A stretch of 64,000 nucleotides of DNA from Bacilli bacterium (GCA_051886215.1 JBJEXX010000016.1:4877-68876), one strand, 5' to 3'. Counted from the stretch's first letter, positions 4,608 to 28,157 are shown. Notes: generated from the sequence alone by a model not told the origin. Numbers and translations are program-made.

Positions 4608-4688
4608 GTATAATTAGAAAAATAACAATATTCACTTGATTTAATTGATTTAAAATTATATACTTAATATAGAATAGGAGTAGATAAT

Positions 4689-5108
4689 ATGAATAAGAGT
4701 GATAGAAAAAAATATACAATTAGAGGTTTAAGTGTAATAGTTATAACTTTAGTAATTATGTTAGGTATTGGTTTAGTTAGTAATATTGTATCAAATAGTT
4801 TTATTAATGATGAAGGTAATACATTTAATGCTCAGTTAGGAGATAACATTTTAATTGAAAAAATTACTGCAAGTGAAATTCATTATATAGATTCTAGTTT
4901 AATTAATATACCACTTTCAGTTCCTTATGAAGTAACTCCTAGTAATGCTACTAATCAAGATGTTTATATTATAAGTAGTGATAATTCTATAGTTGTAGTT
5001 AATGATGATAATACTATAACAGCTTTAAAAACAGGAACAGTTACTTTAACTTTAGTAGCTAATGATGGAAGTAATGTTACTACTAGTCTACAATTAGTAA
5101 TTGAATAA
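4689..5108 (+). CDS. Small membrane-anchored Big_2-domain protein
   Basis: TM anchor plus one Big_2-like segment (TPSNATNQDVYIISSDNSIVVVNDDNTITALKTGTVTLT). RBS GGAG upstream. Confidence 0.4.
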   Translation: MNKSDRKKYTIRGLSVIVITLVIMLGIGLVSNIVSNSFINDEGNTFNAQLGDNILIEKITASEIHYIDSSLINIPLSVPYEVTPSNATNQDVYIISSDNSIVVVNDDNTITALKTGTVTLTLVANDGSNVTTSLQLVIE

Positions 5109-5112
5109 AATT

Positions 5113-5135
5113 AACAAGCATTAGCTTGTTTTTTT
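5113..5135 (+). terminator. Rho-independent terminator
   Basis: aacaagc-atta-gcttgtt hairpin followed by T5. Confidence 0.55.
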
Positions 5136-5182
5136 GTGGCTTTAATGATACAATTTTATTATTAAAATAGGAGGAATCTGCT

Positions 5183-6238: not shown

Positions 6239-6240
6239 TA

Positions 6241-8019
6241 GTGAAAAGAGCTACGGGTGAATTGAATTTAACAGTTGTGGTCTTGGTGGCTATTGGTGCC
6301 ATTTTGGGCTTTTTTATGCTGTTTAAAGATACTATGTTTAGTAGTGCTATGGCTCCTACTTGTTGTATTTTAAGTAAAGGTACATATAAGAATGGTATTT
6401 GTGAAACTAATGAATCATCTAAATATCAAGAATGTATGGGTGGAGGAACTATTGAATCTAGTAATAAACAAGAATCTGAAAACAAATTTATAAAAGGGAG
6501 TGATTCAATAGATAATTCTAATATTATTAATAATATTAAAGATAGTGGAGTAGAAAATAGTATTAATGGTGATCTGTCTATTTCAAATAGTGACGATAAT
6601 AGAAAAGCAGATGAAGATAATAAAGAATTAAATAAAAAATCTACAGATAATATAAAAGATATTATGTCAAATACTACAGGAAATGCTAAAGGTGAAAATA
6701 GTGGCCAAATTACTGGTGAAAATGAAGAAGAAATAAAGAATAAAGCTTCTAATGGATTGAATACAAAAGGAGATTATAGTAAAAGTAGAATTACTAATAC
6801 TACTTCTAATTATAGTTCTGATAAAAGTTCTTATACTACTACATCTACTGTAAAAAGTAATACTTCAAATTATCAAATGAATATTACTTATACATATCAA
6901 AAGAATAAATCAGGATCTTATGAATTAACAGGAATTTCGTGGAAAGAGTCCAGACCTTCAGAAATTTTAGTTAATGGTTATGAAAAAGAATTGACTGAAA
7001 ATGGTGATACTATTAAACATAGTTATAATGGTGTTTTAAAAGGACAATATAATACAGAAAAATTAAATAGTTATATTGATGAGAATGGTACTAAAATTTA
7101 TAATGAATTAAGTAATAGAGTAGTATTCTTAGATACTTATAGTGGTGATAGGATTGTTGAAAATGCTAATGGGGTGTTTATAAATCCAGGTGTTATTGTT
7201 ACTACTTGGAATTTTTTGAAAAAATCAGTTATTAATGGTGATAAATTAATTGTTACTAATAGTGAGGGTGGTAATTATAGTGTAGATGGTATTATATCCA
7301 TTAATACTGAACTTGATTTAGCATTTATTAAATTAAAAGAAAAAATAGGTGATAAGACAGAATTTGGAAATGTGTATGATTTAAAAGTAGAAGCAATTGA
7401 TTTCACTATATGTACAGATAATGATTATAAATTAGAAGTTAAATATGGTTATTTATTAAAAAGAGGTGGTTTAATAACTAGTTTAATTACTTTAGAAAGA
7501 AATGAAGAAGGTAGTCCATTATTTGATTATAATAAAAAACTTATCGGTATAAATACAGCTAACGTGTTAAAATCTTCTACTTCTATTGCTAGAAGTACTA
7601 ATTATATAAAAAATCTACAATCAAAATTAGAAAAACAGGATTTTACTAGTATTAAAGTAACCAGTTTTAAAGATTTAAAAAACAAGTATATAAATGAAAA
7701 TAATGAAACAGAAGATAATACAATACCAAAAGATATCTGGAATAAATATAAAAGAATTGGTGATGTTGAAAACACTATAACTTTAAATTTAATAAAATCT
7801 AGTTATGATGATAATATAGTATCTTTAAGATATGTTAATGATATAAGTGATTATTCTGATAATTTTGCTTTAGCGGATAATTTTATAAATAAACTTATAA
7901 AACAAGAATATAAAAAGAAACACTCTAGTACTTATAAAATTATTTATCAAAAAGGAAATAGTAAAGTTATATTACTTAGTGAATTTAATTATTTAATAAT
8001 TATTATGACAGGAGTTTAA
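6241..8019 (+). CDS. Large membrane-anchored/secreted protein with S/T/N-rich linker and a degenerate trypsin-like (S1-fold) region
   Basis: GTG start 2 nt after the upstream stop. N-terminal hydrophobic segment (coded by locally GC-rich codons). Region ...DLAFIKLKE...EEGSPLFDYNKKLIGINTA resembles Trypsin_2 domains, but the His/Ser catalytic positions are not conserved. Confidence 0.35.
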   Translation: MKRATGELNLTVVVLVAIGAILGFFMLFKDTMFSSAMAPTCCILSKGTYKNGICETNESSKYQECMGGGTIESSNKQESENKFIKGSDSIDNSNIINNIKDSGVENSINGDLSISNSDDNRKADEDNKELNKKSTDNIKDIMSNTTGNAKGENSGQITGENEEEIKNKASNGLNTKGDYSKSRITNTTSNYSSDKSSYTTTSTVKSNTSNYQMNITYTYQKNKSGSYELTGISWKESRPSEILVNGYEKELTENGDTIKHSYNGVLKGQYNTEKLNSYIDENGTKIYNELSNRVVFLDTYSGDRIVENANGVFINPGVIVTTWNFLKKSVINGDKLIVTNSEGGNYSVDGIISINTELDLAFIKLKEKIGDKTEFGNVYDLKVEAIDFTICTDNDYKLEVKYGYLLKRGGLITSLITLERNEEGSPLFDYNKKLIGINTANVLKSSTSIARSTNYIKNLQSKLEKQDFTSIKVTSFKDLKNKYINENNETEDNTIPKDIWNKYKRIGDVENTITLNLIKSSYDDNIVSLRYVNDISDYSDNFALADNFINKLIKQEYKKKHSSTYKIIYQKGNSKVILLSEFNYLIIIMTGV

Positions 8020-8020
8020 A

Positions 8021-8533
8021 ATGAATAAAAAAGAAAAAATAATTTTAACAATTATATTTATAGTAGTTATATTTATAATGGGTTTTTCTATAAAATTTAT
8101 AGTAAATTCTAATTCTTTAAAAAAATATAGTTCTGATAAAATAACCTTTAATTATGATAATTCTTGGACAGTAACTAGAAACGAAAATAATTTTTATTTG
8201 GTTGATAAGAATGGAAGTAGCATTATAATTAATATTACATCTATTGATACTGATAGCGAAAGTATGAGTGTAGAAGAAGTAAATAGTAGTATAATTTATA
8301 AGTTACTGCAAGATAATGATAAATATAAAAAAATTGCCGAAGAAAGTTGTAAAATGACTAGTGTTTATTATGATGGATATAAAACTTTACTTGAGAATGA
8401 TGCTAATCAATCTCTTATATATGTCACTATGACTAGTGATTATATTTTAACTGTTAATTATTCTGCTTTAAATAAATATTTTGATTTAGGTATTGATAGT
8501 GTAGAGAATATTGTTGGTTCTATTGCAATTTAA
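8021..8533 (+). CDS. Hypothetical membrane-anchored protein
   Basis: 170 aa with an N-terminal TM segment. Starts 1 nt after the upstream stop, so likely co-transcribed. Confidence 0.3.
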   Translation: MNKKEKIILTIIFIVVIFIMGFSIKFIVNSNSLKKYSSDKITFNYDNSWTVTRNENNFYLVDKNGSSIIINITSIDTDSESMSVEEVNSSIIYKLLQDNDKYKKIAEESCKMTSVYYDGYKTLLENDANQSLIYVTMTSDYILTVNYSALNKYFDLGIDSVENIVGSIAI

Positions 8534-8566
8534 TGGAGATTTAGAGTATAATAAAAGAATGAAAAA

Positions 8567-10378
8567 GTGGTGATTATAATGAGTAGGTATAATGATAATG
8601 TTACTTTTAATACTGATAAAAAAGATGATAGTAGTTCTAAAGCTTTAAAAAAATTTTTGTTTTTTGGTTTTGGAATTATTGTAATATTAATTGTAGTAAT
8701 AGTTGTTATATTGTCTTTGGTTAATAAAAATATTGATACTAGTTTATCTAGTTTAAGTGTTGATTCAGGAATAATTAGTCCAGAATTTAAAAGTGATAAA
8801 TTAAATTATACTATTGAAACTGATTCTGATGATTTGTTTTTTACATGTAAGGCTACATCAAAAAAATCTAAAATTGATGGATGTGGAAAAACTATTAAAT
8901 TAGAAGATGACGAAAATGATATTAAAATTGTAGTTAGTTATAAAAATCAAAGTACTACATATAATTTTAAAGTTATAAAAAATAGTAAATTTGATATTCA
9001 GGTAACAGGTAATAGTGATAATTGGACTGATAAAGATATTACTTTAGTGGTAACTGCTACTTCATTAGAAAATATCCCTTTAGCGGAAATGGCTTATTCT
9101 TTTGATGATGGTGAGACTTGGCAAAAAGAAAATAAAGCAGTTTTTTCAAAAAATCAAACAGTTAAAATTAGAGTAAAAGATATAGAAGGAAATACTTCTG
9201 CAGCTTTTAAAGAAAAAATTTCTAAAATAGATAAAAATGTACCTAAAGTAAAATTATCTGTTAATAACAAAAAATTAACTGCCGTTGTTACACCTGATAA
9301 AACACCTAGTGGTTATTCTTATACTTGGTATTTAAATGGTGAAGAAATAGAAGGAGCCAAAAGTATTAATTATACTGCTAAAGAAAATGGTAAATATAAA
9401 GTTAAAGTTACTTCTAAAGTTGGAAAGAGTGTAGTAAGTGAAGAAGTTACTATAACTAGTGGTACAACTTATACAATTAATTATAATGGAAATGGTGGAG
9501 TAGATGTACCAAACGATCAAATAAAGTCTAAAGATGAAGAATTAATTATTACTAATAAAAAACCTAGTAGAGAAGGATATTCTTTTAAAGGATGGTCAGT
9601 AACTAGTGATGGAGAAGTTGATTATTTTTCTGGTGACAAATATAATTTAAATAAATCTATAATTTTATATGCAGTATGGGAGAAAAATACTTCTGTTGAA
9701 AAATATAATATTTATTATAATGCTACAGGAGGAAATAATGCTCCTAATACTCAAGTTAAAGAGCAAAATAAAGATATAACTATTAGTAATACTAAACCTA
9801 CAAAAGCAGATAGTGAATTTTTAGGTTGGGCTGTTAGTAATGGAGGAAGTGTTGTTTATACTCCAGGTGCTGTTTACAAAGATAATAAATCTATAACTTT
9901 ATATGCAGTATGGAAAAAGATGAAAACAATAACTGTTACTTATAGGGGAAATGGAGCTAATGTTACAAAATCAGCTGTTTCTTCAAGTGGTACTAATACC
10001 TTTACAATGCCTACTATCACAAGAGCTGGTTATACAGTTGTAGGTTGGGCTTATTCTCAAACTGCTACTCAGGCTAACTATACAGTAGGTCAAAAAGTAA
10101 CTTTTAATGATTCGGTTACTTTATATGCGGTTACTTATAAAAAAATTACGGCTACATTTAATAAAAATACAGCTAGTAAAATTAGTAAAAATAATGAAAG
10201 TTGTTATTTATATAATAAAGCTACATTATGTAGTGTCACTACGCCAACTATTACACCCAAATCTGGTAAAAAAGCTTTAGGTTGGTCAATATATCAAAAT
10301 GTTAGTAGTGCCTCTTTTGCGGCTAATACCAAAGTTGCTATTTCTTCTAACACGACACTTTATGCTATAACTAAATGA
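8567..10378 (+). CDS. Surface protein with Listeria-Bacteroides (Flg_new) repeats
   Basis: N-terminal TM segment, then at least three repeats of the form ...Y(T/N)I(N/Y)YNxNGG...P...K...G(Y/S)(S/T)F.GW......YAVW, characteristic of PF09479. The alternative ATG at 8579 is possibly the true start. Confidence 0.55.
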   Translation: MVIIMSRYNDNVTFNTDKKDDSSSKALKKFLFFGFGIIVILIVVIVVILSLVNKNIDTSLSSLSVDSGIISPEFKSDKLNYTIETDSDDLFFTCKATSKKSKIDGCGKTIKLEDDENDIKIVVSYKNQSTTYNFKVIKNSKFDIQVTGNSDNWTDKDITLVVTATSLENIPLAEMAYSFDDGETWQKENKAVFSKNQTVKIRVKDIEGNTSAAFKEKISKIDKNVPKVKLSVNNKKLTAVVTPDKTPSGYSYTWYLNGEEIEGAKSINYTAKENGKYKVKVTSKVGKSVVSEEVTITSGTTYTINYNGNGGVDVPNDQIKSKDEELIITNKKPSREGYSFKGWSVTSDGEVDYFSGDKYNLNKSIILYAVWEKNTSVEKYNIYYNATGGNNAPNTQVKEQNKDITISNTKPTKADSEFLGWAVSNGGSVVYTPGAVYKDNKSITLYAVWKKMKTITVTYRGNGANVTKSAVSSSGTNTFTMPTITRAGYTVVGWAYSQTATQANYTVGQKVTFNDSVTLYAVTYKKITATFNKNTASKISKNNESCYLYNKATLCSVTTPTITPKSGKKALGWSIYQNVSSASFAANTKVAISSNTTLYAITK

Positions 10379-10411
10379 TGTGAGTAAATTACTTACATCA
10401 TTTTTATTTCA

Positions 10412-10440
10412 TTGAAATCATTTTTATAATGTTATATAAT
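10412..10440 (+). promoter_or_regulatory. Sigma-A-type promoter for the LCP gene
   Basis: TTGAAA, 17-nt spacer, TATAAT; about 25 nt upstream of the RBS AGGAGGG. Confidence 0.4.
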
Positions 10441-10465
10441 ATTATTACATACTAGGAGGGATTAA

Positions 10466-12268
10466 ATGACAAGGGAAGAAAAAAGAAATGAAAATAAAGG
10501 TGTTAATATAGGAGTAATATTTAGTATTATTTTATTATTTTTAACCAGCATTTTTCTTATATATAATATATTTTTGTTAGGACCTATAGAACCAGTTCTT
10601 AGATATATTTTAATTGGGTTAATTGTACTTATTAATTTTATTAAATTTAAAAAAAGAAAAAGAGTTATTAAAAAGAAAAAAAGTAAAAAATTTATTATTT
10701 TTAATATAGTTCTTTCTATTATATTTTTATTAATTGGATTATTTATATATAAATTTTATAATTCGATTGATAGTTTAAGTAAAGATATGGATACATATTC
10801 TTCAAGTTTAGTGGTTAAAAATGATAGTTCTATAACAGGTATACAAGATATTGAAGATAGTAAAATAGGAATGCTTAATGATGAAACTAGTTATGAAGGT
10901 TATATTATTCCTAATGAAACTATAGATAAAAATGATTTAGAAAGTGATAATGATATTATTACTTATGATAGTTATACAGAGTTATTAAATGCTCTTTATG
11001 ATGAAGAAGTAGATGGTGTTTTTTTACCAACAAATTACGTTAATATGTTTAGTAATGTTGATGGATATGAAAATATTAATAATGAGACAAAAATAGTATT
11101 TACTAAAACAAAAACTATCAAAAAGAAACTTTCTTTTAGTAAAAACAAAATAGACAAACCAATAACTGTTTTACTTACAGGAATAGATTCTAATGTTGAT
11201 GGACTTAGTAATAGTGCTTCATCTAATAGTGATACATTGATAGTAGTTACTTTTAATCCTGAAACTTTAACTGCTACTATGCTTAGTATTCCTAGAGATA
11301 GTTATGTACCTATAAGCTGTTTTAGTGGAAATGAAAAAAGCAAAATTACACATTCTGGATGGCAGGGTATTGATTGTGTGGAAAATACTATTGAAGATTT
11401 TTTAGATATAGAGATCGATTATTATGTAAAACTTAATTTTAAAGGATTAGTAAATTTAGTTGATGCTTTAGGTGGAATTGATGTAGAGGTTCCTCAAGAT
11501 TTATGTACCGATAGTTCTGATAGAACTGGTGAAGTTTGTATTAAGGCTGGAAGTCAACATTTAAATGGAGAAGAAGCTTTAGTTTTAGCAAGAAATAGAA
11601 AACAACTTGCTAGAGGTGATATAGATAGAGGACTTAATCAACAAATAGTTGTTAAAGGAATACTTAATGCAGTACAAAATAATATAACTAATGTTAATGC
11701 TTTATCTAAACTTTTAGATACTTTATCTAAAAATATGGATACTAATTTTTCTACTGATGAAATTTTATCTTTCTATAATGTTGGTAAAGATATACTTAGA
11801 AAATCTAATAAAAGCGCTACTGATAGTATAAATATTATTCAATTGTTCTTAGCTGGAGAAGGTGCTTACATTTATGATCCGGGTACAAAACTTGATTTAT
11901 ATTATTATATTTTATATAAAGAAAGTGTGGAAAAAGTTAGTGAAGCTATGAATTATAATTTAGGTAAAACTACTCCTGATATGGATAAAACTTTTACTTG
12001 GTCAATTGATGAAAACTATGAGCATACTCCTTTAGGAAAAGATATCAGTGATTTTACAAAATTATATTATAGTGGTAGTAGTTATAGACCTAATACTTCT
12101 TCTGATACTACTAATGATAGCTCTAATTCTAATTCTACCAATAATTCTAAAGAAGAGAATGATAGCAAAGAAGATATAAATGATGATACAGATGAAGATA
12201 ATGAAGATGAAATTGATGATACTGATGATGAAGATGATCCTTTAGATACTATAACTCCTCAACCATAA
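10466..12268 (+). CDS. LytR-CpsA-Psr (LCP) family glycopolymer-peptidoglycan ligase with a long acidic C-terminal tail
   Basis: N-terminal TM segments. LCP core: LLTGIDSNVDGLSNSASSNSDTLIVVTFNPETLTATMLSIPRDSYV...GINQ..V.G. C-terminus DDTDEDNEDEIDDTDDEDD. Confidence 0.7.
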   Translation: MTREEKRNENKGVNIGVIFSIILLFLTSIFLIYNIFLLGPIEPVLRYILIGLIVLINFIKFKKRKRVIKKKKSKKFIIFNIVLSIIFLLIGLFIYKFYNSIDSLSKDMDTYSSSLVVKNDSSITGIQDIEDSKIGMLNDETSYEGYIIPNETIDKNDLESDNDIITYDSYTELLNALYDEEVDGVFLPTNYVNMFSNVDGYENINNETKIVFTKTKTIKKKLSFSKNKIDKPITVLLTGIDSNVDGLSNSASSNSDTLIVVTFNPETLTATMLSIPRDSYVPISCFSGNEKSKITHSGWQGIDCVENTIEDFLDIEIDYYVKLNFKGLVNLVDALGGIDVEVPQDLCTDSSDRTGEVCIKAGSQHLNGEEALVLARNRKQLARGDIDRGLNQQIVVKGILNAVQNNITNVNALSKLLDTLSKNMDTNFSTDEILSFYNVGKDILRKSNKSATDSINIIQLFLAGEGAYIYDPGTKLDLYYYILYKESVEKVSEAMNYNLGKTTPDMDKTFTWSIDENYEHTPLGKDISDFTKLYYSGSSYRPNTSSDTTNDSSNSNSTNNSKEENDSKEDINDDTDEDNEDEIDDTDDEDDPLDTITPQP

Positions 12269-12300
12269 ATTTACAAATGTTTACAATACTTAACAAATAA

Positions 12301-12322
12301 AGACAGACTATTCTGTCTTTTT
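12301..12322 (+). terminator. Rho-independent terminator after the LCP gene
   Basis: agacaga-ctat-tctgtct hairpin, then TTTT. Confidence 0.65.
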
Positions 12323-12369
12323 ATAATGTAATTTGTTATAATTATTATGATAATGAGGAGGTGTATATA

Positions 12370-14439
12370 ATGAAGAGAATAATCACATTATTTGTGTTTA
12401 GTCTACTTATTGTTATGCCTTTTTCTGTGAAAGCTGAAACTAAATATGGTTATAGTAATGTTACTGGAAGTAGCTTTAGCATTCGTAGTAGTTCTAATAG
12501 TTCTGCTTCTGTTATTGGATATTTATATGGTGGTGTAAACGTTGAAATAGTAGATTCTGCTAGTGGTAATGGCTGTGGAACATGGTATAAAATAAAATTT
12601 AATAATGGTTATGGTTGGATTTGTGGAATTAGTAATAGTGGTGCTAAAAATGTTGAACTTTATACAACACAGACTTTAAGAACAAATGAAAGAACTGCTG
12701 AGACAGATTATGAAAAAACATTACAAAATGCGGGATTTCCTTCTAGTTATTGGGATAAATTAAGCGCTCTTCATAAAGCACATCCTAATTGGAATTTTGT
12801 GGCTGATAAAACAGGTAGAGATTGGTCTTATGCTACTTGGGCAGAAACAGGAGCTGTAAGCGATGGGGATATAGATAAAAGTTTACTTTATGCTTATAAT
12901 GGAAATACAGATTTAATTGCGGGATATTTAAAGACAGACACTTATAATTATAAAACTAATAAATTTACAATGCAGGATTCTGGAGGATTTTATGCAGCTC
13001 GTCAAGAAATGGTTGCTTATTATATGGATCCAAGAAATTTTTTAAATGAGAATTTTATATTCCAATTTGAAGTGTTATCTTTTAATTCAACTTATCATAC
13101 TAAAAGTGTTATTGAAAATATTTTTGGTAGCGGTTATTTGAACCAATATGCTAGTAACTATGTGGGTGCTGGTAAATCAAAAAATGTATCAGCTGTTCAC
13201 TTGGCTACTCGTAGTGTTCAAGAAGGTTTAAATAAATCAAATTTTGTAACAAACGGTGCAGAATTTATTTATAGCGGTAGTTTATATACTTCTATTCAAG
13301 GTCAAAAGTTTAGTAATTGTTTTAATTTCTTTAATATAGGTGCATATTCTGATAATGTCAGTGCTTTACAAAATGCAGGGGTTTATGCTTGTGGTGGTGT
13401 TAATAGAAATGAAACTTCATATGGCAGGCCATGGAATAGTGTTGATAAGGCTTTACTTGGAGGAGCTGAAATAATAGGTGGTAATTATATTGCTTCTGGA
13501 CAGGATACTTTATATTTTCAAAAATATAATACAGCAAGTTATACTAAAACAGCTGTATACGGTCACCAGTATATGTCTAATATTAGTGCAGTTGCTTATG
13601 AAGGTAGCGATACATATGATTCGTATTATGCAAATGGTTTAATTAGTAGTGCAGCTTTTACTTTTGTTATTCCTGTTTATAATAATATGCCAGAAAAGAC
13701 TTCATTACCTAGCTCATTAAGTCCAAATAATTATTTAACTGGTATTAAAGTTGATGGTACTAGTATTGCTAATTTTGATGGAGATAAAACTGAAGGTTAT
13801 AAAGTAAATGTTGTTAATAGTAAAACTACTGTTAGTATTAGCACTACTACAGTGGTTGATAGTGCTAAAGTTACTATCAATAATGGCAATAGTATATCTC
13901 TTAATGTAGGAGATAATAAAATACCTATTTTAGTAACTGCAGCTAATGGAGAAAAAAGAACTTATTATATAACGATTACTAGAGAAGAAGCTAGTAATGG
14001 TTCAACAACTGATATTGAAACAACTATAAAAAATGCAGGTTATAAAATTACAGATACTTATATTGGAAATATTAGTTTAAATAATACTTTATCTACAATA
14101 AATACAAAAATAAAAAATCAAAATTCATCTGCTAATATTTCTCTAAAAGATAAATCAGGTAATAGTAAAACTACTAGTAATGTACTTGCTACTGGTGATA
14201 AATTGACAATTACTATAGGAAGTGAAGAAAAAACATATGAACTTTATGTTTATGGAGATGTTAATGGTGATGGACTTGCAAAAGCAACAGATTACATGTT
14301 AATAAAAAATCATATTATGACTAATAAAAAATTAAGTGGTGCTTATGCTAAAGCAGCTGATGTTAATAAAGATGGTAATGTTAAAGCAACAGATTATATG
14401 TTAATAAAAAATTATATTATGAAAGGAATAAGTTTTTAA
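12370..14439 (+). CDS. Secreted GH73-type N-acetylglucosaminidase (autolysin) with SH3b-like N-terminus, cadherin-like domain and C-terminal type-I dockerin
   Basis: Signal peptide. NFFNIGAYSDNV...YACGGVNRNETSYGRPWNSVDKALLGGAEIIGGNYIASGQDTLYFQKYN...YGHQYMSNIS matches the glucosaminidase (PF01832) core. The two dockerin-like repeats are GDVNGDGLAKATDYMLIKNHIM and ADVNKDGNVKATDYMLIKNYIM. RBS GAGGAGG lies 8 nt before the ATG at 12370. Confidence 0.6.
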   Translation: MKRIITLFVFSLLIVMPFSVKAETKYGYSNVTGSSFSIRSSSNSSASVIGYLYGGVNVEIVDSASGNGCGTWYKIKFNNGYGWICGISNSGAKNVELYTTQTLRTNERTAETDYEKTLQNAGFPSSYWDKLSALHKAHPNWNFVADKTGRDWSYATWAETGAVSDGDIDKSLLYAYNGNTDLIAGYLKTDTYNYKTNKFTMQDSGGFYAARQEMVAYYMDPRNFLNENFIFQFEVLSFNSTYHTKSVIENIFGSGYLNQYASNYVGAGKSKNVSAVHLATRSVQEGLNKSNFVTNGAEFIYSGSLYTSIQGQKFSNCFNFFNIGAYSDNVSALQNAGVYACGGVNRNETSYGRPWNSVDKALLGGAEIIGGNYIASGQDTLYFQKYNTASYTKTAVYGHQYMSNISAVAYEGSDTYDSYYANGLISSAAFTFVIPVYNNMPEKTSLPSSLSPNNYLTGIKVDGTSIANFDGDKTEGYKVNVVNSKTTVSISTTTVVDSAKVTINNGNSISLNVGDNKIPILVTAANGEKRTYYITITREEASNGSTTDIETTIKNAGYKITDTYIGNISLNNTLSTINTKIKNQNSSANISLKDKSGNSKTTSNVLATGDKLTITIGSEEKTYELYVYGDVNGDGLAKATDYMLIKNHIMTNKKLSGAYAKAADVNKDGNVKATDYMLIKNYIMKGISF

Positions 14440-14457
14440 TAGTAAGTAGGTGATTAT

Positions 14458-15777
14458 ATGAAAAAATATAAAATATTTAATTTATTTATATTTATAATAT
14501 GTATATTTTTTTCAATATCAATAAAAGTTAATGCTGCATCTTGGACAATTATTTCTTCTAAAGCTTCAGTAGCTAGTGGTCAAAGTTTTACAGTTAGAAT
14601 TCATGGTAATGATGTAGTAGGTCAATTTACTATAAGCGTTAATAATGGCCGTTCAAGTGAAAGTGTTGTATGGAAAGATGAAAATACCGATAGAAGTTTT
14701 ACAGTTACGGCAACTGGTAGTGGAACTGTATATGTTAAAGTTGTTGCGACCGATTGTTCTGATATTAATGGTAATCCAGTTGGAGGAAGTGACAATGTTT
14801 CAGTAAATATTATAAATAGTAATGATGATGGTTCACGAAGTAATTCATCTTCTAATAAAACTTATAGTAATACAGCTAATCAAGAATTAAGTAATAATAA
14901 TTATTTAAAAAGTTTGACTATTGATGGATATAATCTATCTCCAAGTTTTAATAAAGATGTTACGAGTTATAATGTAGAAGTAGATGAATTAAGTGAAAAA
15001 ATAAAAATAAATGCGGAAGCTGAAGATAAAACTGCTACTATTGAAGGAATTGGTGAAAAATCTTTAGAAAAAGATAATATTTTTCAAATAGTAGTAAAAG
15101 CTGAAAATGGACAAGTAAAAACATATACTATAAATGTTTTATTTAAAGATGATAATCCAATTAAAGTAAAAAAAGGCAATAAAACGTATACTCTTGTTAA
15201 AAGAAAGTCATTAATAAAAGAATTTGATGATTATAAATCAACTACTATAAAAATAAATAATCAAGAAATTCCGGCTCTATATAATAAAACTACTAAACTT
15301 ACTTTGGTTGGGTTGAGATATAAAGATAAAGTCTATTTATATAGATATAATAAGGAAACTAATACTTATGTAAGATATATAGAATATGATTTTAAAAATG
15401 TTAAATTAGTCTTATTTAAATTAAGTGATAAAATGATACCTGATGGTTATAAAGAATATACTATAAAAATAAATGGCTATAATACTAAGGTTTATAAATT
15501 AAGAAAATCATCTAAATATTCTTTGATATATGGTATGAATATAAAAACAGGAATTAAAACTCTTTATTTGCATGATTCTAAAGAAAACACTGTTCAGCGT
15601 TATACAACAGAAGCAATGACTGCTTTAAAAAATCAAAATTCTAAGTATCAAAAAATATGTATTGGATTATGTGGGGGAGTTGCTTTATTAGTTATAGTTT
15701 TATTAATTTTTATTAGTAAAAGTGATAAAAAAAGAAAAATAAAAAATAAGGTTAAAAGATATGAAAATGAAAAGTAA
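14458..15777 (+). CDS. Cell-surface protein with signal peptide, N-terminal beta-rich domain, cadherin-like domain and C-terminal TM anchor
   Basis: NNYLKSLTIDGYNLSPSFNKDVTSYNVEV...INAEAEDKTATIEG fits the cadherin-like beta-sandwich pattern. C-terminal ICIGLCGGVALLVIVLLIFISKS followed by a K/R-rich tail. Confidence 0.4.
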   Translation: MKKYKIFNLFIFIICIFFSISIKVNAASWTIISSKASVASGQSFTVRIHGNDVVGQFTISVNNGRSSESVVWKDENTDRSFTVTATGSGTVYVKVVATDCSDINGNPVGGSDNVSVNIINSNDDGSRSNSSSNKTYSNTANQELSNNNYLKSLTIDGYNLSPSFNKDVTSYNVEVDELSEKIKINAEAEDKTATIEGIGEKSLEKDNIFQIVVKAENGQVKTYTINVLFKDDNPIKVKKGNKTYTLVKRKSLIKEFDDYKSTTIKINNQEIPALYNKTTKLTLVGLRYKDKVYLYRYNKETNTYVRYIEYDFKNVKLVLFKLSDKMIPDGYKEYTIKINGYNTKVYKLRKSSKYSLIYGMNIKTGIKTLYLHDSKENTVQRYTTEAMTALKNQNSKYQKICIGLCGGVALLVIVLLIFISKSDKKRKIKNKVKRYENEK

Positions 15778-15800
15778 TAATTAATATTATTACTTTTTTT
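15772..15800 (+). terminator. Rho-independent terminator
   Basis: aagtaataat/attattactt 10-bp stem overlapping the stop codon, then T5+. Confidence 0.6.
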
Positions 15801-15863
15801 AGGTTTTATATATTGAGATTAATTTTTTTTCTTCATACAATATATTGAAAGTAGGTGGATTGT

Positions 15864-16049
15864 ATGAAAGAATTTTTAAAGAGATTAAAGGATCCTATAG
15901 TAATTTCATCAATATTTTCTTTAATATATATATTTATTGCTCCTAAACTTAATTTACCTGATTGGACATTAGTTTCTTCTCAATTTTTAGCTATTATATA
16001 TGCAATATTTGGTATTACTAATAATCCTACTGATAAAAATTGTTATTAG
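15864..16049 (+). CDS. Small two-TM protein (61 aa), holin-like
   Basis: Two hydrophobic segments with a polar C-terminus. RBS AGGTGG 5 nt upstream. Ends 12 nt before the signal-less M23 peptidase gene. Confidence 0.35.
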   Translation: MKEFLKRLKDPIVISSIFSLIYIFIAPKLNLPDWTLVSSQFLAIIYAIFGITNNPTDKNCY

Positions 16050-16061
16050 GAGGTGATTAAG

Positions 16062-16874
16062 ATGAAAAAAGGACAAACTAGTATCAGAGGAGGTATAGAG
16101 GACTTTTTATGTCCTTTTACTGATATGTATATAACTCAAGGTAGTGGTGGAAATGGTAGTCATGCTGGAACTATGGCCAATGATATTCGTGGTAAAATAG
16201 TAGGAGTTAAGGCTCCGTATTATGCTCCATGTACTTTGAAGTGTTTAAAAATATATCCTGAGAATGGTCAAATTATGTGGCAGTCAACAAATAAAGTAAG
16301 ATTTGCTAACGGAAAGATTAATTATGCAACTATAATGACAGCTCATGACAATACAGTAGATTCATACGTAGGACAAATAGTAAAACAAGGCCAACAATTA
16401 GGAAATATGGGAAATAAAGGAAATGCTAGTGGAGTGCATTGTCATATAGAAATTGAACAAGGAAATGATACTTCTTGGAAGAAAAATAGCTATGGTAATT
16501 ATTGTTTTAATAATGAAGTTGATACTGACAGTTGCTATTTTGTAGATAATACAAATATTTTATATGGTAGTGGTGGAAATTGGAAATATCTTAAAGATGT
16601 AAATGTTGATACTGAGAATAATTATATAAACTTATCTCCTAGTATTTCATCTTGGAGATTTTATAATATTACGGATGCTCCGATTAAAAAGAATGCTATT
16701 GGATATTTAAATCCTAAAAAATTTGGTGGATTATCTTATAAAATATTAGAATATCGTGATAATAATAATACCGTTGTTATAAATACTGTTCAATTTGGCA
16801 AAGTAAAAATTTTTATTTATAATACCGCATCTACAATAACAAATAGTCCTAAATATAAATCAGGTAATTATTGA
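16062..16874 (+). CDS. M23-family (LytM-like) peptidoglycan endopeptidase with C-terminal putative wall-binding domain; no signal peptide
   Basis: H..D (GSHAGTMAND) and HxH (GVHCHIEIE) motifs of peptidase M23. The N-terminus MKKGQTSIRGG is not hydrophobic. RBS AGGAGGTG upstream. Confidence 0.6.
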   Translation: MKKGQTSIRGGIEDFLCPFTDMYITQGSGGNGSHAGTMANDIRGKIVGVKAPYYAPCTLKCLKIYPENGQIMWQSTNKVRFANGKINYATIMTAHDNTVDSYVGQIVKQGQQLGNMGNKGNASGVHCHIEIEQGNDTSWKKNSYGNYCFNNEVDTDSCYFVDNTNILYGSGGNWKYLKDVNVDTENNYINLSPSISSWRFYNITDAPIKKNAIGYLNPKKFGGLSYKILEYRDNNNTVVINTVQFGKVKIFIYNTASTITNSPKYKSGNY

Positions 16875-16881
16875 TGTTACA

Positions 16882-16910
16882 TTTACAATTAAATATAAAT
16901 CTGTTATAAT
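16882..16910 (+). promoter_or_regulatory. Sigma-A-type promoter for the sigma-factor gene
   Basis: TTTACA, 17-nt spacer, TATAAT. Confidence 0.4.
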
Positions 16911-16930
16911 AGAACGCAATTGGTGGTAGT

Positions 16931-18715
16931 ATGAGAAAAGAAGAATTAAAGAAATTAGTTATTTCTAAAATATTTACTAAAAATGAACAAAAGTTTATAA
17001 ATGAGAAAGAACTGGATAGAATTATTTTTAAAGTGTTTTCAAATGAACAAGATATGGATTTTATATATAATATATTAGAAGATAATAATGTTAAAATAAA
17101 AAAATCAACTTCATATGATGAAGAAAATATGTCTATGAATTCTATCATAAAAGCATATTTGAATGAAATTTCTAAATATCCATTATTGACAAAAGAAGAA
17201 GAGTATTATTATTCAAAACTTGCTCAACAAGGTGATCAAAAAGCTTTTGAAATTATGAATAACTGTAATTTAAGGTTAGTGGTATCAATTGCGAAGAAAT
17301 ATGTTAATAGGAGTAGTTTGGATTTTGAAGATTTAATACAAGAAGGTAATATTGGCCTTATGAAAGCTATAAATAAATTTGATCCAGATAAAGGTAATAA
17401 GTTTTCAACTTATGCTACGTTTTGGATTAAACAAAATATAACTAGAGCTATGTATGATAATGGTAAAACTATAAGAATTCCTGTTCATGAACAAGAAAAA
17501 TTAAATAAAATTAAGCTAATTAATGAAACTTCTTTTTCAAAATTAGGTAGAAATATGACAATGAGAGAGCTCATAATTACTTATTATTCAAATTATTCTA
17601 GTATGAAAGATTTAATTACTAAAAATAATATAAATGAAAATGTAGATAGTTGTATAAATGTTATACCAGAGTTTTTAAAAGAAAATGTTAATTTAGATGA
17701 AATATCTAAAAAGCATTCAATATCAATCATAAAATTAAGGAAATTATCAGATGTTATAAATAGAGAAATCAAAATGACAGAGGAGTCTTTTACAAGGGAG
17801 AATATTCTATCTTTACATGTGCCAATTAATAATGAAGATGATAATTCTTTGTTAGAAAACTTTGTGGAGGATAAAAATACGAATTTATCTTTGGTGGTGG
17901 AGTCTTCTTTGTCTGTAGAAGAGATAAAAAAAGAAATCATTAATACTTTATCTAAAGAAGATAGTTATGACTCTGAAGGAAATTGTATTATTGGATCTAG
18001 AAAATTCACATATAGTCAACAACAGCAAATTTCAAAGTTTTATACAGAAGTCGTTAAAATTTGTCGTAAGAATAATATTGATGAATTAACAAATCAATTA
18101 GTAGAAGAAAATGAGGAATTTTATAATATAAAAATTTTAAATGATGAAATGAATAAAATTAATTATTATTATGAATTTAAAACTAAATATGAAGATATAA
18201 AAAATAAGTATTTAGATAGATTAGAAGCAATTTTAAAGATAAATAATATTGATACTGACTATATAAAGCTGTGTAAACAACAATTGTTAAAAAGATTAAA
18301 ATCAGATAATATTAATGATATTATAAATAGTAATCCTAAATTTATTAATCTTGTCGATATTCAGAATAATTTGTTTAGCGATATTATATATATATTACAA
18401 GCTAATTGTAATATAAAAATTGATTATTTATTAGAGTTTTGTAAATTTCATAATATAGTAAATAATCCTAAAAATGTTAATAATATATTTTGTTCTGTTT
18501 CAAATAATAAAACATTTGAACAAAATTACGAAATGTATTTAACTGCTTATAAAGAGATAAGAAATATTGATGTTTTAGTAAGAAGATTAGGATTAAATGA
18601 TAGAATTTATACTTTGGAAGAAATAGGTGAAATTTATGGTTGTACACGGGAAAGAGTTCGACAATTAGAAACTAAAGGTTTACGATTAGTTAAAAACAAA
18701 ATTAAAAAGATATAA
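16931..18715 (+). CDS. Sigma-70 family RNA polymerase sigma factor (594 aa) with a ~300-aa insertion between region 3 and region 4
   Basis: Region 1.2/2: SMNSIIKAYLNEISKYPLLTKEEE...DLIQEGNIGLMKAINKFDPDKGNKFSTYATFWIKQNITRAM. Region 3: TIRIPVHEQEKLNKI. Region 4 HTH only at the extreme C-terminus: YTLEEIGEIYGCTRERVRQLETKGLRLVKNKI. Confidence 0.7.
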   Translation: MRKEELKKLVISKIFTKNEQKFINEKELDRIIFKVFSNEQDMDFIYNILEDNNVKIKKSTSYDEENMSMNSIIKAYLNEISKYPLLTKEEEYYYSKLAQQGDQKAFEIMNNCNLRLVVSIAKKYVNRSSLDFEDLIQEGNIGLMKAINKFDPDKGNKFSTYATFWIKQNITRAMYDNGKTIRIPVHEQEKLNKIKLINETSFSKLGRNMTMRELIITYYSNYSSMKDLITKNNINENVDSCINVIPEFLKENVNLDEISKKHSISIIKLRKLSDVINREIKMTEESFTRENILSLHVPINNEDDNSLLENFVEDKNTNLSLVVESSLSVEEIKKEIINTLSKEDSYDSEGNCIIGSRKFTYSQQQQISKFYTEVVKICRKNNIDELTNQLVEENEEFYNIKILNDEMNKINYYYEFKTKYEDIKNKYLDRLEAILKINNIDTDYIKLCKQQLLKRLKSDNINDIINSNPKFINLVDIQNNLFSDIIYILQANCNIKIDYLLEFCKFHNIVNNPKNVNNIFCSVSNNKTFEQNYEMYLTAYKEIRNIDVLVRRLGLNDRIYTLEEIGEIYGCTRERVRQLETKGLRLVKNKIKKI

Positions 18716-18719
18716 TTAC

Positions 18720-18762
18720 AAAAGAGTAAAATAAATTTACATTTTTTTACTCTTTTGTTTTT
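18720..18762 (+). terminator. Strong Rho-independent terminator
   Basis: 12-bp perfect stem aaaagagtaaaa/ttttactctttt with a T-rich 3' side. Confidence 0.65.
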
Positions 18763-18780
18763 GTAAAAAAATGATGAATG

Positions 18781-18809
18781 TTGTAAAAAAATGTATATAA
18801 ATATATAAT
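18781..18809 (+). promoter_or_regulatory. Promoter for the VanW-family gene
   Basis: TTGTAA, 17-nt spacer, TATAAT. The -35 region is part of a 13-nt direct repeat, ttgtaaaaaaatg, present twice 21 bp apart. Confidence 0.4.
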
Positions 18810-18832
18810 TATTATGAGGTATTATAAATAGT

Positions 18833-25149: not shown

Positions 25150-26040
25150 ATGAATTATTATGATGAGATAAAAAATAAGATAATAGATAATGAAGTATAT
25201 TCAAGAGTAAAAGATTATTCAAAGGAAAGAAATACTGTTATTACATATTTTGAAATCGGCAAATTATTAAATGAAGCAGGTGGTAAATATGGAGATAATA
25301 TTATTGATGAATATTCTAAAAGATTAGTCGTTGATGTTGGAAAGAAATATAATCGCAGAACATTATTTAGAATGAAGCAATTTTATAATGTGTTTAGTAA
25401 TGAAAAAGTGTCAACGCTGTTGACACAATTAAGTTGGTCACACTACTTGTTATTAATATCATTAAATGATTTTGATGAAATAATATATTATATTAACGTA
25501 GCTAAAGATAACAATTTATCACAAAGACAACTACAAGAAAGAATTAAAAATAATGAGTACAAAAGATTACCTATAGAAACAAGAAATAAAATAACAAATA
25601 ATGAATCGCTTAATATTAAAGATTTAGTACCTAATCCCATATTGATTAGAAATATAAATAATTTTGAAATAATTACGGAAAAAGTACTGCAAAATTTAAT
25701 ACTTGAAGATATTGAATCATTTATGAAAGAATTAGGTAATAATTTTAGTTTCATTGGTAGTAAATATAAAATTAAGATTGGTGATAATTATCATAAAATA
25801 GATTTACTATTATTTAATATAAAATATAATTCATATGTAGTTATTGAATTAAAGATTACTGAATTTAAAGTTGAATACATTTCGCAAGTACAAAAGTATA
25901 TGAACTATATTGATAAAAACTTAAAAGAAATTAGTAATAATAATACTATTGGAATAATTATCTGTAAGAAAGAAAATAGGTTTGTGATTGAGTACTGTTC
26001 TGATGAAAGAATTGCTGTAAGAGAATATCAATTAGTGTGA
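25150..26040 (+). CDS. DUF1016 / YhcG-family PDDEXK nuclease (paralog A)
   Basis: N-terminal LSWSHY block (typical of YhcG/DUF1016) and a C-terminal PD-(D/E)xK core (IDLLLFN...VVIELKITE). RBS GGAG upstream. Confidence 0.7.
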   Translation: MNYYDEIKNKIIDNEVYSRVKDYSKERNTVITYFEIGKLLNEAGGKYGDNIIDEYSKRLVVDVGKKYNRRTLFRMKQFYNVFSNEKVSTLLTQLSWSHYLLLISLNDFDEIIYYINVAKDNNLSQRQLQERIKNNEYKRLPIETRNKITNNESLNIKDLVPNPILIRNINNFEIITEKVLQNLILEDIESFMKELGNNFSFIGSKYKIKIGDNYHKIDLLLFNIKYNSYVVIELKITEFKVEYISQVQKYMNYIDKNLKEISNNNTIGIIICKKENRFVIEYCSDERIAVREYQLV

Positions 26041-26147
26041 TATAATATATATAGGAAGTGAATTATATGTACTATCATGTATCACAAACAAAAAATATTA
26101 ATATTTAGAACCTAGAATTTCAAATCATAATAAACCCTTAATATACT

Positions 26148-26479
26148 TTTCAAATAAAAGAGAAAATGTTTTAGTATATCTAAGCAATGCAGTAGAAAAG
26201 TATTGTAAAGAGAGTAATTTTAATTATAATGGAATTTGGAGCAAATGGGCATCTTACGGATTTACAAAAGATGGGGTGTTAGAAATACAAGAATATTATC
26301 CGAATGCCACTTATGAAACCTACCATGGTGTTAGTGGGTATATATATTCTACTGATAGTATACCAAATGTTGAAAAACAAGAAGATATTCCAAATGCTTT
26401 TCATACTAGCGAGAATGTGGAAGTTACTCATTGTGAATATATAGAAGATGCATATAAAGAAATACAAAAAGAAATATAG
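26148..26479 (+). pseudogene. Start-less open frame / gene remnant of unknown family
   Basis: The frame is open from the TAA at 26145 to 26479 with no ATG, and it reads protein-like sequence (…NGIWSKWASYGFTKDGVLEIQEYYPNATYETYHGVSGYIYSTDS...). Upstream frames from the ATG at 26068 are interrupted by stops. The ORF-track call (26276..26479) uses a TTG start. Confidence 0.25.
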
Positions 26480-26654
26480 TCCTAGTTAAATATGAGGAGT
26501 TTATTAAAACTAGCAAAGATTAGTTATATAAGACTATACAACAAGAGTATGATGAAGCAGTCGTGCATCCAGAATATAGTCATTTTTTAATCAATAAATT
26601 TCCATTTATAAATAAATAAAATAGAACTATCAATTTTGATGGTTTTTTCTTTTG

Positions 26655-27224
26655 TAAATAAAGAAACTATAACCATGTGCGTAACCGTTAGTCTCACATG
26701 GTAATCTAATCATATGGGTGAAGTTATTAATTTTCAAAGTAGAGAAATTAATCTTTAATTGTGGAGATTATAATTATTTAGAACAAAACTTAATTAAAGT
26801 ATTAGATAAAAAGAAAATACAATATTACTCATGTGTTAAAGAATTAAATATAGATAAGTGTAAATTATATTTTTTTAATAATAAAGATTATGATAATGAG
26901 AATAATAATTCAAATGTTATTTATTTTGAATTTAATAATTATAAATTTATATTTATGGGATATGCTGGAATAGATAAGGAAAAATATATATTGAATGAAT
27001 ATAATATATTTGATGTTGACGTATTAAAAGTAGGACATCATGGAAGTAAGATAAGTTCTAGCAAAAGTTTTATTGATGGGGTTAATACAAAATGCTCTGT
27101 AATTAGCGTTGGGGAAAATAATCGCTATGGACATCCGAATGATAGTGTATTAGATAATTTAAATAATTCAAAAATATATAGAACTAATATTGATGGTAGT
27201 ATATTGTTTAAAATAATAAATTAA
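26655..27224 (+). pseudogene. Duplicated, decayed 3' fragment of comEC (MBL-domain C-terminus)
   Basis: The DNA aligns with comEC ~24535-25135, for example ...catatggg(a/t)gaag.tattaatt...aaagtagagaaa(g/t)t and ...gataatgagaat(g/a)ataattcaaatgttatttattttgaatttaataattataa(g/a)ttt.tatttatggga. The HGDSDHMGEA motif is destroyed (SHMVI*) and MGDAG has become MGYAG. There is no start codon in context. Confidence 0.6.
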
Positions 27225-27260
27225 AAATAGAAACATGTACACCATAGAAAGGAGTAAAAA

Positions 27261-28157
27261 ATGGAAGAACAATATTATATAAGTATTAAAGAAAAATTAT
27301 TAAAAAGTGAAATATATGCTAAAGCAAGAGATTATGCAAAAGATAGAAATAAAGTTAAAGTTTACTATGAAATTGGAGAATTATTAAATAAAGCAGGTAA
27401 GGATTATGGTAAAAATATAATAAAACAATACTCTGAAAAGTTGATGATTGAAGTTGGTAAAAAATATAATGAAAGAACGTTATATGGAATGAGAAAATTT
27501 TATGAGCTTTTCAATGACGGAAAATTGAACCCAATGGGTTCAAAATTGAGTTGGAGTCACTTTAGAGAACTTCTAACATTAAAAGATACTGATGAAATAA
27601 AATATTATATAAGTATAAGTGAAGAAAATAATTTAACTAAAAGACAATTACACGAAAGAATAAAAAATAAAGAGTATGCTAGATTAAGTGATGTTGCAAA
27701 AGATAAAATATCAAATAATCATAAAGTAGATTTACCAGATATGATACCTAATCCAATTATTATTAAAGTCAATAATACAATAGAAAAATTAACTGAATAT
27801 GCTTTAAAAGAATTAATATTAAATAACTTAGATGAATTTTTAATTCAATTAGGTAATGGCTTTACGTATATTGGAAATGAGTTTAAAATCAAGTTAGGTG
27901 ATAGATATAACTTTATAGACTTATTCTTATACAACATTAAATATAAATGTTATGTAGTAATAGAATTAAAAGTAACTGAATTGAATTCTAATCATACAGG
28001 ACAGATTCAAAAATATATGAATTATGTAGATAGAAATATAAAGGCCATAGATGAAAATGATACAGTTGGTATTATAATTTGTAAGAAGAATAATCAGTAT
28101 GTAATAGATTACTGCAGTGATAAAAGAATTCTTTCAAGAGAATATGAATTAGTATGA
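27261..28157 (+). CDS. DUF1016 / YhcG-family PDDEXK nuclease (paralog B)
   Basis: Same architecture as 25150..26040 (LSWSHF block; IDLFLYN...VVIELKVTE). The two proteins are roughly 55% identical by eye. RBS GGAG upstream. Confidence 0.7.
   Translation: MEEQYYISIKEKLLKSEIYAKARDYAKDRNKVKVYYEIGELLNKAGKDYGKNIIKQYSEKLMIEVGKKYNERTLYGMRKFYELFNDGKLNPMGSKLSWSHFRELLTLKDTDEIKYYISISEENNLTKRQLHERIKNKEYARLSDVAKDKISNNHKVDLPDMIPNPIIIKVNNTIEKLTEYALKELILNNLDEFLIQLGNGFTYIGNEFKIKLGDRYNFIDLFLYNIKYKCYVVIELKVTELNSNHTGQIQKYMNYVDRNIKAIDENDTVGIIICKKNNQYVIDYCSDKRILSREYELV

Follow-up and report, generated by a model that had tools for sequence, protein, structure and literature searches.

A candidate lysis cassette of phage origin beside a hypervariable RpoD-like sigma factor in uncultured Bacilli

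We analyzed a chromosome segment of 64,000 nucleotides (nt), hereafter referred to as the window, which has a GC content of 24% and belongs to a Bacilli bacterium (GCA_051886215.1 JBJEXX010000016.1:4877-68876). The analysis was centered on three consecutive genes (positions 15864-18715) encoding a small protein with two transmembrane (TM) segments, a metallo-peptidase of the M23 family and a long sigma-70 factor. We propose that the first two genes form a phage-derived two-gene lysis cassette, made up of a holin and an endolysin, which is now a fixed chromosomal pair within a small clade of Bacilli that are uncultured and have a GC content of 24%, a reading that we regard as probable. Judged from its sequence, the pair is demonstrably of phage origin. 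The third gene is a real, fast-evolving RpoD paralogue, which is a more unusual feature than the cassette itself and possibly controls it. The three open reading frames (ORFs) lie where an initial annotation of the window had placed them (Table 1), and the phage-lysis-cassette layout that it had recognized is upheld, since both proteins fall into holin and endolysin families with homologues in phage lysis modules.

A short holin and a signal-less endolysin

The M23 protein (270 amino acids, aa) starts at the ATG at 16062, 12 nt past the stop codon of the small ORF and behind the sequence GGAGGTG, and comprises a catalytic domain (residues 1-~183) and a C-terminal domain (residues ~182-270, nt 16605-16871). 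Its assignment rests on the following lines of evidence. First, it matches the Pfam M23 family (32.3 bits versus a cut-off of 28.7), phrog_11037 (E 2e-28) and the endolysin family phrog_9066 (E 1.5e-17); among phage proteins it is closest to the Clostridium phage Amboise endolysin (44% identity), with gp13-type proteins from phi29-like phages next in rank. Second, the PDB entry that it matches best is 3CSQ, the M23 domain of phi29 gp13 (hidden Markov model (HMM) profile E 1.3e-28), and the AlphaFold2 model of the protein (predicted local distance difference test (pLDDT) of 90, and of 92 for residues 182-270) was matched by Foldseek to the same structure (E 8e-14; root-mean-square deviation of 1.6 Å over 167 columns), with full-length lysostaphin as the second-best fold match. 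Third, H34, D41, H95, H126 and H128 are invariant in 33 M23 homologues, and the H-x(n)-D and H-x-H motifs are present. Fourth, no hydrophobic segment occurs at the N-terminus: the maximal 15-residue Kyte-Doolittle value within the first 60 residues is 0.54, as compared with 2.5-3.9 in all exported neighbors, so that a cryptic signal peptide was rejected and the lack of a secretion signal noted initially holds true. As read from sequence and predicted fold, the M23 protein is a cytoplasmic, phage-type endolysin of the phi29-gp13 type with intact active-site residues. An assignment as a sporulation or division protein (SpoIIQ, DipM, ShyC) was rejected, the NCBIfam matches being marginal.

The C-terminal domain of the M23 protein is all-beta and basic (K+R 11, D+E 3), occupies the position of the wall-binding modules of endolysins and matches, through residues 188-230, the C-terminal end of the endolysin family phrog_5182 (E 1.3e-7). 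These features speak for the wall-binding role that the initial annotation had given it, a claim that stands only in part, as will be seen from the fold matches weighed below.

The M23 protein has more than 1,000 homologues. Full-length homologues with 65-68% identity occupy the endolysin slot of prophages L001 and L007-L010, in which tape-measure, tail and tail-fibre genes and a Phage_holin_4_1 holin precede the M23 homologue, with integrases adjoining. Others were found in 33 viral contigs and 50 GTDB genomes (Bacilli, Erysipelotrichaceae and 'Tenericutes'-labelled metagenome-assembled genomes, MAGs), and homologues often join the catalytic domain (1-~183) to another C-terminus, which points to domain shuffling after residue ~183. 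In the flanks of these 83 loci we found neither a holin of the window type (A1; 0/83) nor a sigma factor gene (0/83). In another MAG, the start of the M23 endolysin homologue is overlapped by the gene of a different, 68-aa holin (L003, 172-378), which we take to resemble the LL-H/Dp-1-type holins. As the partners differ between the window, L003 and L001/L007 (Phage_holin_4_1), this endolysin family appears to have been freely combined with at least three holins. We also observed that in prophage L001 a 69-aa protein (5487-5696) with an Acb2/Tad1 hairpin domain, of the anti-CBASS/anti-Thoeris sponge family, is encoded between the holin and the M23 endolysin homologue.

The small protein (MGN0973194.1 in the NCBI annotation), the ORF of which is preceded at 5 nt by the ribosome-binding site AGGTGG, possesses a basic N-terminus (K2, K6, R7, K9) and two hydrophobic stretches at about residues 11-27 and 36-52, in agreement with the two TM segments first ascribed to it. 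A word-indexed search returned a single relative (93%), and an exhaustive search of 1.8 billion representatives returned seven. Six of them are 59-85 aa long and share R7, Y22, P32-x-W34, F49-G50 and N54-P55 with the window protein; the seventh is a 6,156-aa protein that matches in nine stretches. Among the eight members of this family, seven match phrog_297 'holin' (best E 4e-5) and four match PF04531 Phage_holin_1 (best E 0.013). An hhalign comparison of the family with two annotated holins, from a Streptococcus phage and a C. perfringens phage, was likewise positive (95.6%, E 1.2e-8) and paired RLK-x-P...W with RLQNKAT/RFKNPALW, while a local HMM of the family matched the phiCP34O holin (E 1.3e-8). 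Furthermore, the motif FGITNNPTD aligns to GVVNDPTT / GLMNNPET, thus placing a G-x-x-N/D-P-T sequence after TM2 as in Phage_holin_1. A tblastn search of phages with the window ORF gave noise only; with the family member P0246 it retrieved holins from phages of Streptococcus and C. perfringens, aligned along 80-84% of the query; these matches are consistent though each individually non-significant.

The genomic context of the relatives points in the same direction. Two family members were found in IMG/VR, both within the lysis region of a viral contig. In L016, a 59-aa holin (4001-4180) is followed by an Amidase_3 endolysin (4199-5014) and then by an integrase, and in L015 a CHAP/NlpC-like endolysin (3297-3992), itself located after a tail-fibre gene, is directly followed by the holin (4007-4186). 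Since these phage copies are equally short (59 aa), the window holin is not a truncated remnant. Profile matches and context identify the small protein as a predicted short two-TM member of the Phage_holin_1 family, in a branch that appears to be rare and previously undescribed. A dual-start holin/antiholin is not claimed, because the in-frame GTG at 15855 lies in the ribosome-binding site and the extension MDC would add an acidic residue; in the lambda antiholin S107, the added residue is basic.

By analogy with the Young-type model, in which holin accumulation and then membrane permeabilization let the endolysin reach the wall (summarized in PMC9662197 and PMC9527704), we propose that, upon transcription of the cassette, the holin would accumulate in the membrane with both its N- and C-termini inside, and would then permeabilize it. 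The folded M23 enzyme could thereby reach the wall and cut its peptide cross-links, of the D-Ala-Dpm type if it is gp13-like, gp13 being listed as a D,D-endopeptidase that cuts D-Ala-Dpm (PMC9662197). The cell, or a subpopulation, would then lyse, which might set free the contents of the cytoplasm, or else particles or enzymes whose genes lie elsewhere.

Descent of the pair and its genomic setting

The same locus was found in four lineages: that of the window, that of L004/L011 and their relatives, L006, and L104-L108, the flanking proteins of the last three being 87-96%, 64-76% and 63-65% identical to those of the window, respectively. Synonymous divergence (dS) and the ratio of non-synonymous to synonymous divergence (dN/dS) were calculated with the Nei-Gojobori method for the pairs window-L011 and window-L006. 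The dN/dS values are 0.07 (L011) and 0.09 (L006) for the M23 gene, the former being equal to that of FtsW in the same comparison (0.07), and 0.19 (L011) and 0.18 (L006) for the holin, as compared with 0.15-0.25 for the surface proteins of the flanks. The dS of the cassette (0.31 and 1.1 for L011 and L006, respectively) matches that of the flanks (0.2-0.3 and 0.94-1.06), which argues for vertical descent rather than repeated insertion. No other gene of the locus is as well conserved between lineages as M23 (79-85% identity), and the DNA homology between the window and L006 spans exactly the promoter, the holin and the M23 gene (15739-16872).

These data bear on the possibility that the pair is a decaying prophage remnant without any host function, an idea that would suit its clear phage origin and the rearrangement of the neighboring locus between lineages. 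In view of the purifying selection, the flank-like dS and the strong conservation of M23, we consider such a remnant very unlikely. It is largely refuted by the selection data, as four lineages, a dS of about 1 apart, have both ORFs intact, with dN/dS values of 0.07-0.19, invariant catalytic residues and a conserved block encompassing the promoter and the ribosome-binding site. As far as sequence comparison can tell, the pair is functional, fixed and under purifying selection. A scan of JGI metagenomes with alignment A6 returned no matches.

A prophage surrounding the pair was rejected, because the flanking ORFs match only Ig-domain/surface-protein families in the PHROG and Pfam scans, which detected no phage structural, integrase or regulatory gene, and because a search for att-like repeats around the pair found none. 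Instead of serving the host directly, the pair might be the lysis module of a phage-like element located elsewhere in the genome, such as a tailocin, a gene transfer agent (GTA), or a prophage or satellite devoid of lysis genes. There is a precedent in the GTA of Rhodobacter capsulatus, the multilocus RcGTA 'genome' of which has its holin and endolysin in a distant lysis cassette (PMC5026251, PMC3423380), and the pair is phage-like and yet vertically inherited and constrained; nevertheless, the 64-kb window contains no structural phage genes, and we hold this explanation to be unlikely. In the GTDB scan, the best match is 69% identical and the species of the window was not recovered, so that genome-level statements are limited to the 64-kb window.

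Another explanation that we considered is a process resembling type 10 secretion, in which the holin and the endopeptidase would breach the envelope without lysing the cell, so that a folded cargo lacking a signal could be exported, as for ChiW/ChiX of Serratia or TcdE/TcdL of C. difficile. The parts are the same, a holin and an endopeptidase (PMC4259817, PMC9527704, PMC12485765), and here too an orphan pair is conserved under selection. However, all ORFs located at 1876-23097, except M23 and sigma, begin with a signal peptide or a membrane anchor, leaving no signal-less cargo candidate on either side of the pair, over ~14 kb upstream (from 1876) and ~6 kb downstream (to 23097), and the genes downstream of the cassette in the other lineages are likewise membrane or glycosyltransferase genes. 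Hence the export pair of the clostridial-toxin kind envisaged in the initial annotation is not borne out, and we judge export of this type quite improbable. Given that neither a cargo gene nor phage genes lie nearby, host-controlled lysis is the most likely selected role of the cassette.

The genes downstream of the trio encode VanW, MscL (on the opposite strand), a 190-aa membrane protein, FtsW, ComEA and ComEC. A functional link to the competence genes, near which the initial annotation had placed the set, is not supported: comEA/comEC are 5.5 kb away, with four unrelated genes in between, one of which is on the opposite strand, and in L105 the genes 3' of the cassette encode YfhO/GtrA, a glycosyltransferase of the GT2 type, VanW, RNase HII and a DnaB-like protein.

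Upstream, the window contains a ten-gene run of exported or anchored surface proteins (1876-15777), with NlpC/P60, Big_2 (twice), three proteins without a family, Flg_new repeats and, next to the pair, an LCP transferase, an SH3-cadherin-dockerin protein and a cadherin-like protein with a C-terminal anchor. For a Bacilli MAG of 24% GC, the type I dockerin is worth noting. Right after comEC come two nuclease paralogues of the YhcG/DUF1016 PDDEXK type (25150-26040 and 27261-28157), with matches to the PADLOC candidate defense family PDC-S02 (E about 1e-61). The 168-aa ORF between them (26718-27224) matches part of LmuA, so that the region 25150-28157 may be a small defense islet. Further downstream lie a wall-polysaccharide glycosyltransferase cluster and the gene of an 866-aa protein (51046-53646) in which a GH25 muramidase domain is combined with 11 ChW repeats and a signal peptide. 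This muramidase is a conventional autolysin of the secreted kind, so that wall hydrolases are available to the cell independently of the holin route.

Transcription signals and the adjoining sigma factor

The signals surrounding the three genes are listed in Table 1. The hairpin and T-tract ahead of the cassette isolate it from the upstream gene; an equivalent hairpin precedes the cassette in L006, and a similar hairpin and T-run, recognized by eye only and unfolded, do so in L104. The -35 box of the candidate cassette promoter varies between lineages. The 27-nt block that overlaps this promoter is conserved in the window, L004, L011 and L006, with one change in L104 (consensus TTCATACAATATATTGAArGTAGGTGGA); 26 of the 27 positions are shared by lineages with a synonymous divergence of about 1. 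The palindrome CAATATATTG of this block (15838-15847) is perfect, overlaps the -10 box and is unique in the window, though not significant alone and imperfect in L104. It could be, by inference only, a repressor operator, and the cassette would probably be kept silent by a repressor acting at this -10/palindrome block. A shared special promoter motif was looked for elsewhere in the window and none was found.

Table 1. Features of the holin-M23-sigma locus. Positions are counted from the first nucleotide of the window; dG is the folding free energy and MFE stands for minimum free energy.
Feature	Position	Strand	Evidence
Terminator-like hairpin and T-tract, ending the upstream cadherin-like gene	15769..15798	+	RNA fold, dG -10.2 kcal/mol, z -4.0, then TTTTTTT
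Candidate cassette promoter, TTGAGA-17-TACAAT	15813..15841	+	Consensus scan, 10/12
Conserved non-coding block TTCATACAATATATTGAAAGTAGGTGGA, with -10 box, 10-bp palindrome CAATATATTG and ribosome-binding site	15832..15858	+	Lineage alignment
Predicted holin, 61 aa, two TM helices, short branch of Phage_holin_1 / phrog_297	15864..16049	+	Profile match, family context, dN/dS
Predicted endolysin, signal-less M23 metallo-endopeptidase with basic SH3-like C-terminal domain	16062..16874	+	Pfam, PHROG, fold, homologue context
Candidate sigma promoter, TTTACA-17-(TG)TATAAT, extended -10	16882..16910	+	Consensus scan, 11/12
RpoD-like sigma factor, 594 aa, lineage-specific inserts	16931..18715	+	Pfam regions 1.2, 2 and 4; region 3.2 motif
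Strong terminator-like hairpin and T-tract after sigma	18718..18762	+	14-pair stem, then T-run; MFE fold of 18713-18832, whole-fold z -2.6

The sigma ORF begins 56 nt past the M23 ORF, and its product is identical to MGN0973196.1 ('MAG: Bacilli bacterium'). It carries regions 1.2, 2, 3.0, a recognizable 3.2 (PINNEDDNSLLENFVED) and 4, lacks region 1.1 and has no Pfam region 3 match. In the alignment its contact motifs resemble those of canonical RpoDs, both for the -10 (WIKQNITRA versus WIRQAITRA) and for the -35 (TRERVRQLE versus TRERIRQIE). As compared to these RpoDs, it is longer by ~58 residues in region 3.1 and by ~215 between regions 3.2 and 4.1 (residues ~325-540, window 17900-18550), and neither insert matches Pfam. 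The ~300-aa insert between regions 3 and 4 described initially was therefore roughly right in total size, but it consists of two separate inserts. An insert placed after the sigma finger and before the flap-binding domain seems unusual for RpoD-like sigmas.

Several identities were rejected for this sigma factor. It is not the primary group 1 RpoD/SigA, in view of its low score (190 versus the RpoD equivalog cut-off of 572; the best NCBIfam matches, RpoS/RpoD, are below cut-offs), the lack of region 1.1, the two large inserts and its status as the fastest-evolving gene of the locus. It is not MzaA, the sigma of the MZA anti-phage system, as the PADLOC/NCBIfam matches cover only the generic region 2 (residues 101-214; 193 bits versus a cut-off of 800). 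Nor is it a group 5 sigma of the TcdR/UviA type, because it is RpoD-like with regions 1.2, 2, 3.2 and 4, and no signal-less cargo is nearby. Only two full-length sigma clusters were found among 5.8 billion proteins, and there is no second sigma gene in the window.

The sigma gene adjoins the pair in all four lineages, on either side and in two gene orders, and evolves faster than any other gene of the locus. The protein is 64% identical between strains with flanks at about 93%, and 29-42% identical between lineages with flanks at 63-75%. At the nucleotide level, its identity to L011 is 67-77% in the gene, 91-93% in the region-2 core and 90-97% in the flanks, so that the variation forms a sharply bounded island (window 16931-18806, compared with L011 5180-6967, L103 8857-9363 and L104 5176-7215). 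The dS of the gene (0.6) is 2-3 times that of the flanks, and its dN/dS is 0.09 within the core, as compared with 0.43-0.48 in the remainder of the gene. L103 carries a third allele, which shares 65% identity with each of the other two and stands beside a 96%-identical M23; this brings to at least three the alleles, about 64-65% identical, that occur among strains with M23 proteins at least 95% identical. Many metagenome contigs end in or beside the sigma gene. The L104 sigma is intact (679 aa). In L006 (6561-6585), in a contig seen in two samples, an in-frame TAA follows residue 279, at the end of region 3.0/3.1, and a GAGG...ATGATG restart occurs 18 nt further on, yielding ORFs of 279 and 378 aa; the L006 gene is either a pseudogene or a split sigma.

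The three genes might make up a single module in which the long sigma turns on both holin and endolysin to produce a regulated suicide, such as a stress- or phage-triggered altruistic lysis, with the sigma inserts acting as a sensor or as a target in an arms race. This explanation is attractive for the following reasons. First, the sigma gene stays beside the pair in four of four lineages despite the swap in gene order. Second, terminators bracket the trio in the window lineage, and RNA folding revealed no hairpin between the M23 stop and the sigma start. The hairpin at 18718-18762, the arms of which are inverted repeat I4, closes the unit in this lineage, a unit that could include holin, M23 and sigma; as nothing terminator-like separates M23 from sigma, read-through is possible and sigma can be co-transcribed from the cassette. 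Third, loci combining a sigma, a holin and an endolysin are known in clostridia (PMC9527704). Fourth, the sigma is hypervariable outside the core that binds RNA polymerase and the -10.

Other findings speak against such a module. The sigma gene has its own near-consensus promoter. The order in L006 is sigma, terminator-like hairpin, holin-M23 and terminator-like hairpin, so that the cassette is flanked by folded hairpins; the gene order of L104 is the same, with similar hairpin and T-run sequences seen by eye only and unfolded. The L006 sigma has its in-frame stop, and yet the cassette is still constrained. Because regions 2.4 and 4.2 are housekeeping-like (RpoD-like) and the holin promoter is sigma-A-like, no dedicated sigma promoter can be recognized. 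All cases come from a single clade, in which tandem duplication and differential loss would equally preserve adjacency; the MzaA match is limited to region 2; and a sigma is near none of the 83 other loci with M23 homologues. Considering its own strong promoter, its fastest evolution and the in-frame stop in one lineage, we see control of lysis by the sigma, and with it the three-gene module, as possible but doubtful.

A more elaborate version of this idea is a module owned by the host, in which parts of the sigma (its variable N-terminus, ~215-aa insert and region 4) would provide a sensing or counter-defense surface, for example against the takeover of transcription by a phage, and activation would kill the infected or stressed cell. 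In the window lineage, read-through from M23 to sigma would then generate a positive feedback. We find this version improbable; if true, it would represent a new type of abortive infection or programmed lysis built from a domesticated cassette and an RpoD paralogue.

Appraisal and comparison with known systems

Several points weigh against the proposal that the pair is a domesticated lysis cassette. On the holin side, the sequence of the small protein taken alone gives only a weak match to phrog_297 'holin' (E 0.066) and no Pfam match, and its C-terminal tail is without the charged extension of classical holins. On the endolysin side, Foldseek searches with the C-terminal domain alone place SH3/SH3b folds on top at non-significant scores (E >= 0.3), and for this reason we regard wall binding as plausible; moreover, as noted in reviews, most M23 endolysins still await in vitro confirmation of their endolytic function (PMC9662197). 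As for regulation, the cassette would be lethal if expressed and has a fair sigma-A-like promoter, so that it requires a control mechanism. Finally, the evidence on the holin branch and the M23 enzyme is computational, and the evidence for fixation comes from a single clade of metagenome assemblies.

Orphan holin-endolysin pairs are core to the release of toxins and chitinases (type 10 secretion), to GTA release and to programmed lysis, and nearly all known cases come from pathogens or model organisms. The present locus adds a case supported by selection in uncultured low-GC gut-type Bacilli, with a gp13-type M23 as a stand-alone endolysin. If the hypervariable RpoD paralogue truly controls the cassette, this would be a new regulation of lysis by a sigma of unusual architecture; if it does not, the cassette would be a routine domesticated phage module and the sigma a separate curiosity.

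Similarly to the cassettes of Firmicutes phages (Streptococcus phage Javan349, C. perfringens phage phiCP34O and prophages L001/L007/L016), the window pair comprises a small two-TM holin of the Phage_holin_1 type adjoining a signal-less modular endolysin, with a tight gene spacing and a separate ribosome-binding site for each gene. It differs from them in having no tail, integrase or regulatory genes, in being inherited vertically with cell-envelope genes and in its combination of holin and M23, which was found in 0/83 of the phage or prophage loci examined. The architecture of the endolysin, an M23 domain joined to an SH3b-type targeting domain, is that of lysostaphin, zoocin A and enterolysin A. 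These bacteriolysins are exported through a signal peptide and used against other species, whereas the window M23 has no signal peptide and is paired with a holin.

Among solved structures, the nearest counterpart of the catalytic domain, in both fold and sequence, is phi29 gp13 (3CSQ), which has the same His...Asp spacing and HxH motif (PMC9662197). However, gp13 is a tail-associated virion protein that is used for entry and carries a fused N-terminal lysozyme domain, whereas the window M23 domain is itself N-terminal, is fused to an SH3-like domain and stands in the endolysin slot.

With regard to gene neighborhood, the window locus resembles the clostridial loci TcdR/TcdE/TcdL (PaLoc) and UviA/UviB/Bcn5, in which a holin and a phage-type endolysin lie, outside any prophage, beside a gene of the sigma-70 family (PMC9527704, PMC12485765). 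The clostridial sigmas are small group-5 proteins (TcdR family), and a large signal-less toxin or a bacteriocin is present in the locus; in contrast, the window sigma is a 594-aa RpoD-like protein (regions 1.2 to 4), its holin belongs to another family and it has no cargo. The type 10 secretion systems are Gram-negative, employ spanins or other enzyme classes and have an adjacent cargo (chitinases, Tc toxins), for which there is no counterpart at the window locus; like the window pair, those of Serratia (ChiW/ChiX) and the lysis cassette of Yersinia entomophaga consist of an orphan chromosomal holin and a peptidoglycan endopeptidase kept for a host function (PMC4259817, PMC10847048). The cassette itself is not categorically new, but is an orphan or domesticated lysis cassette in a new setting.

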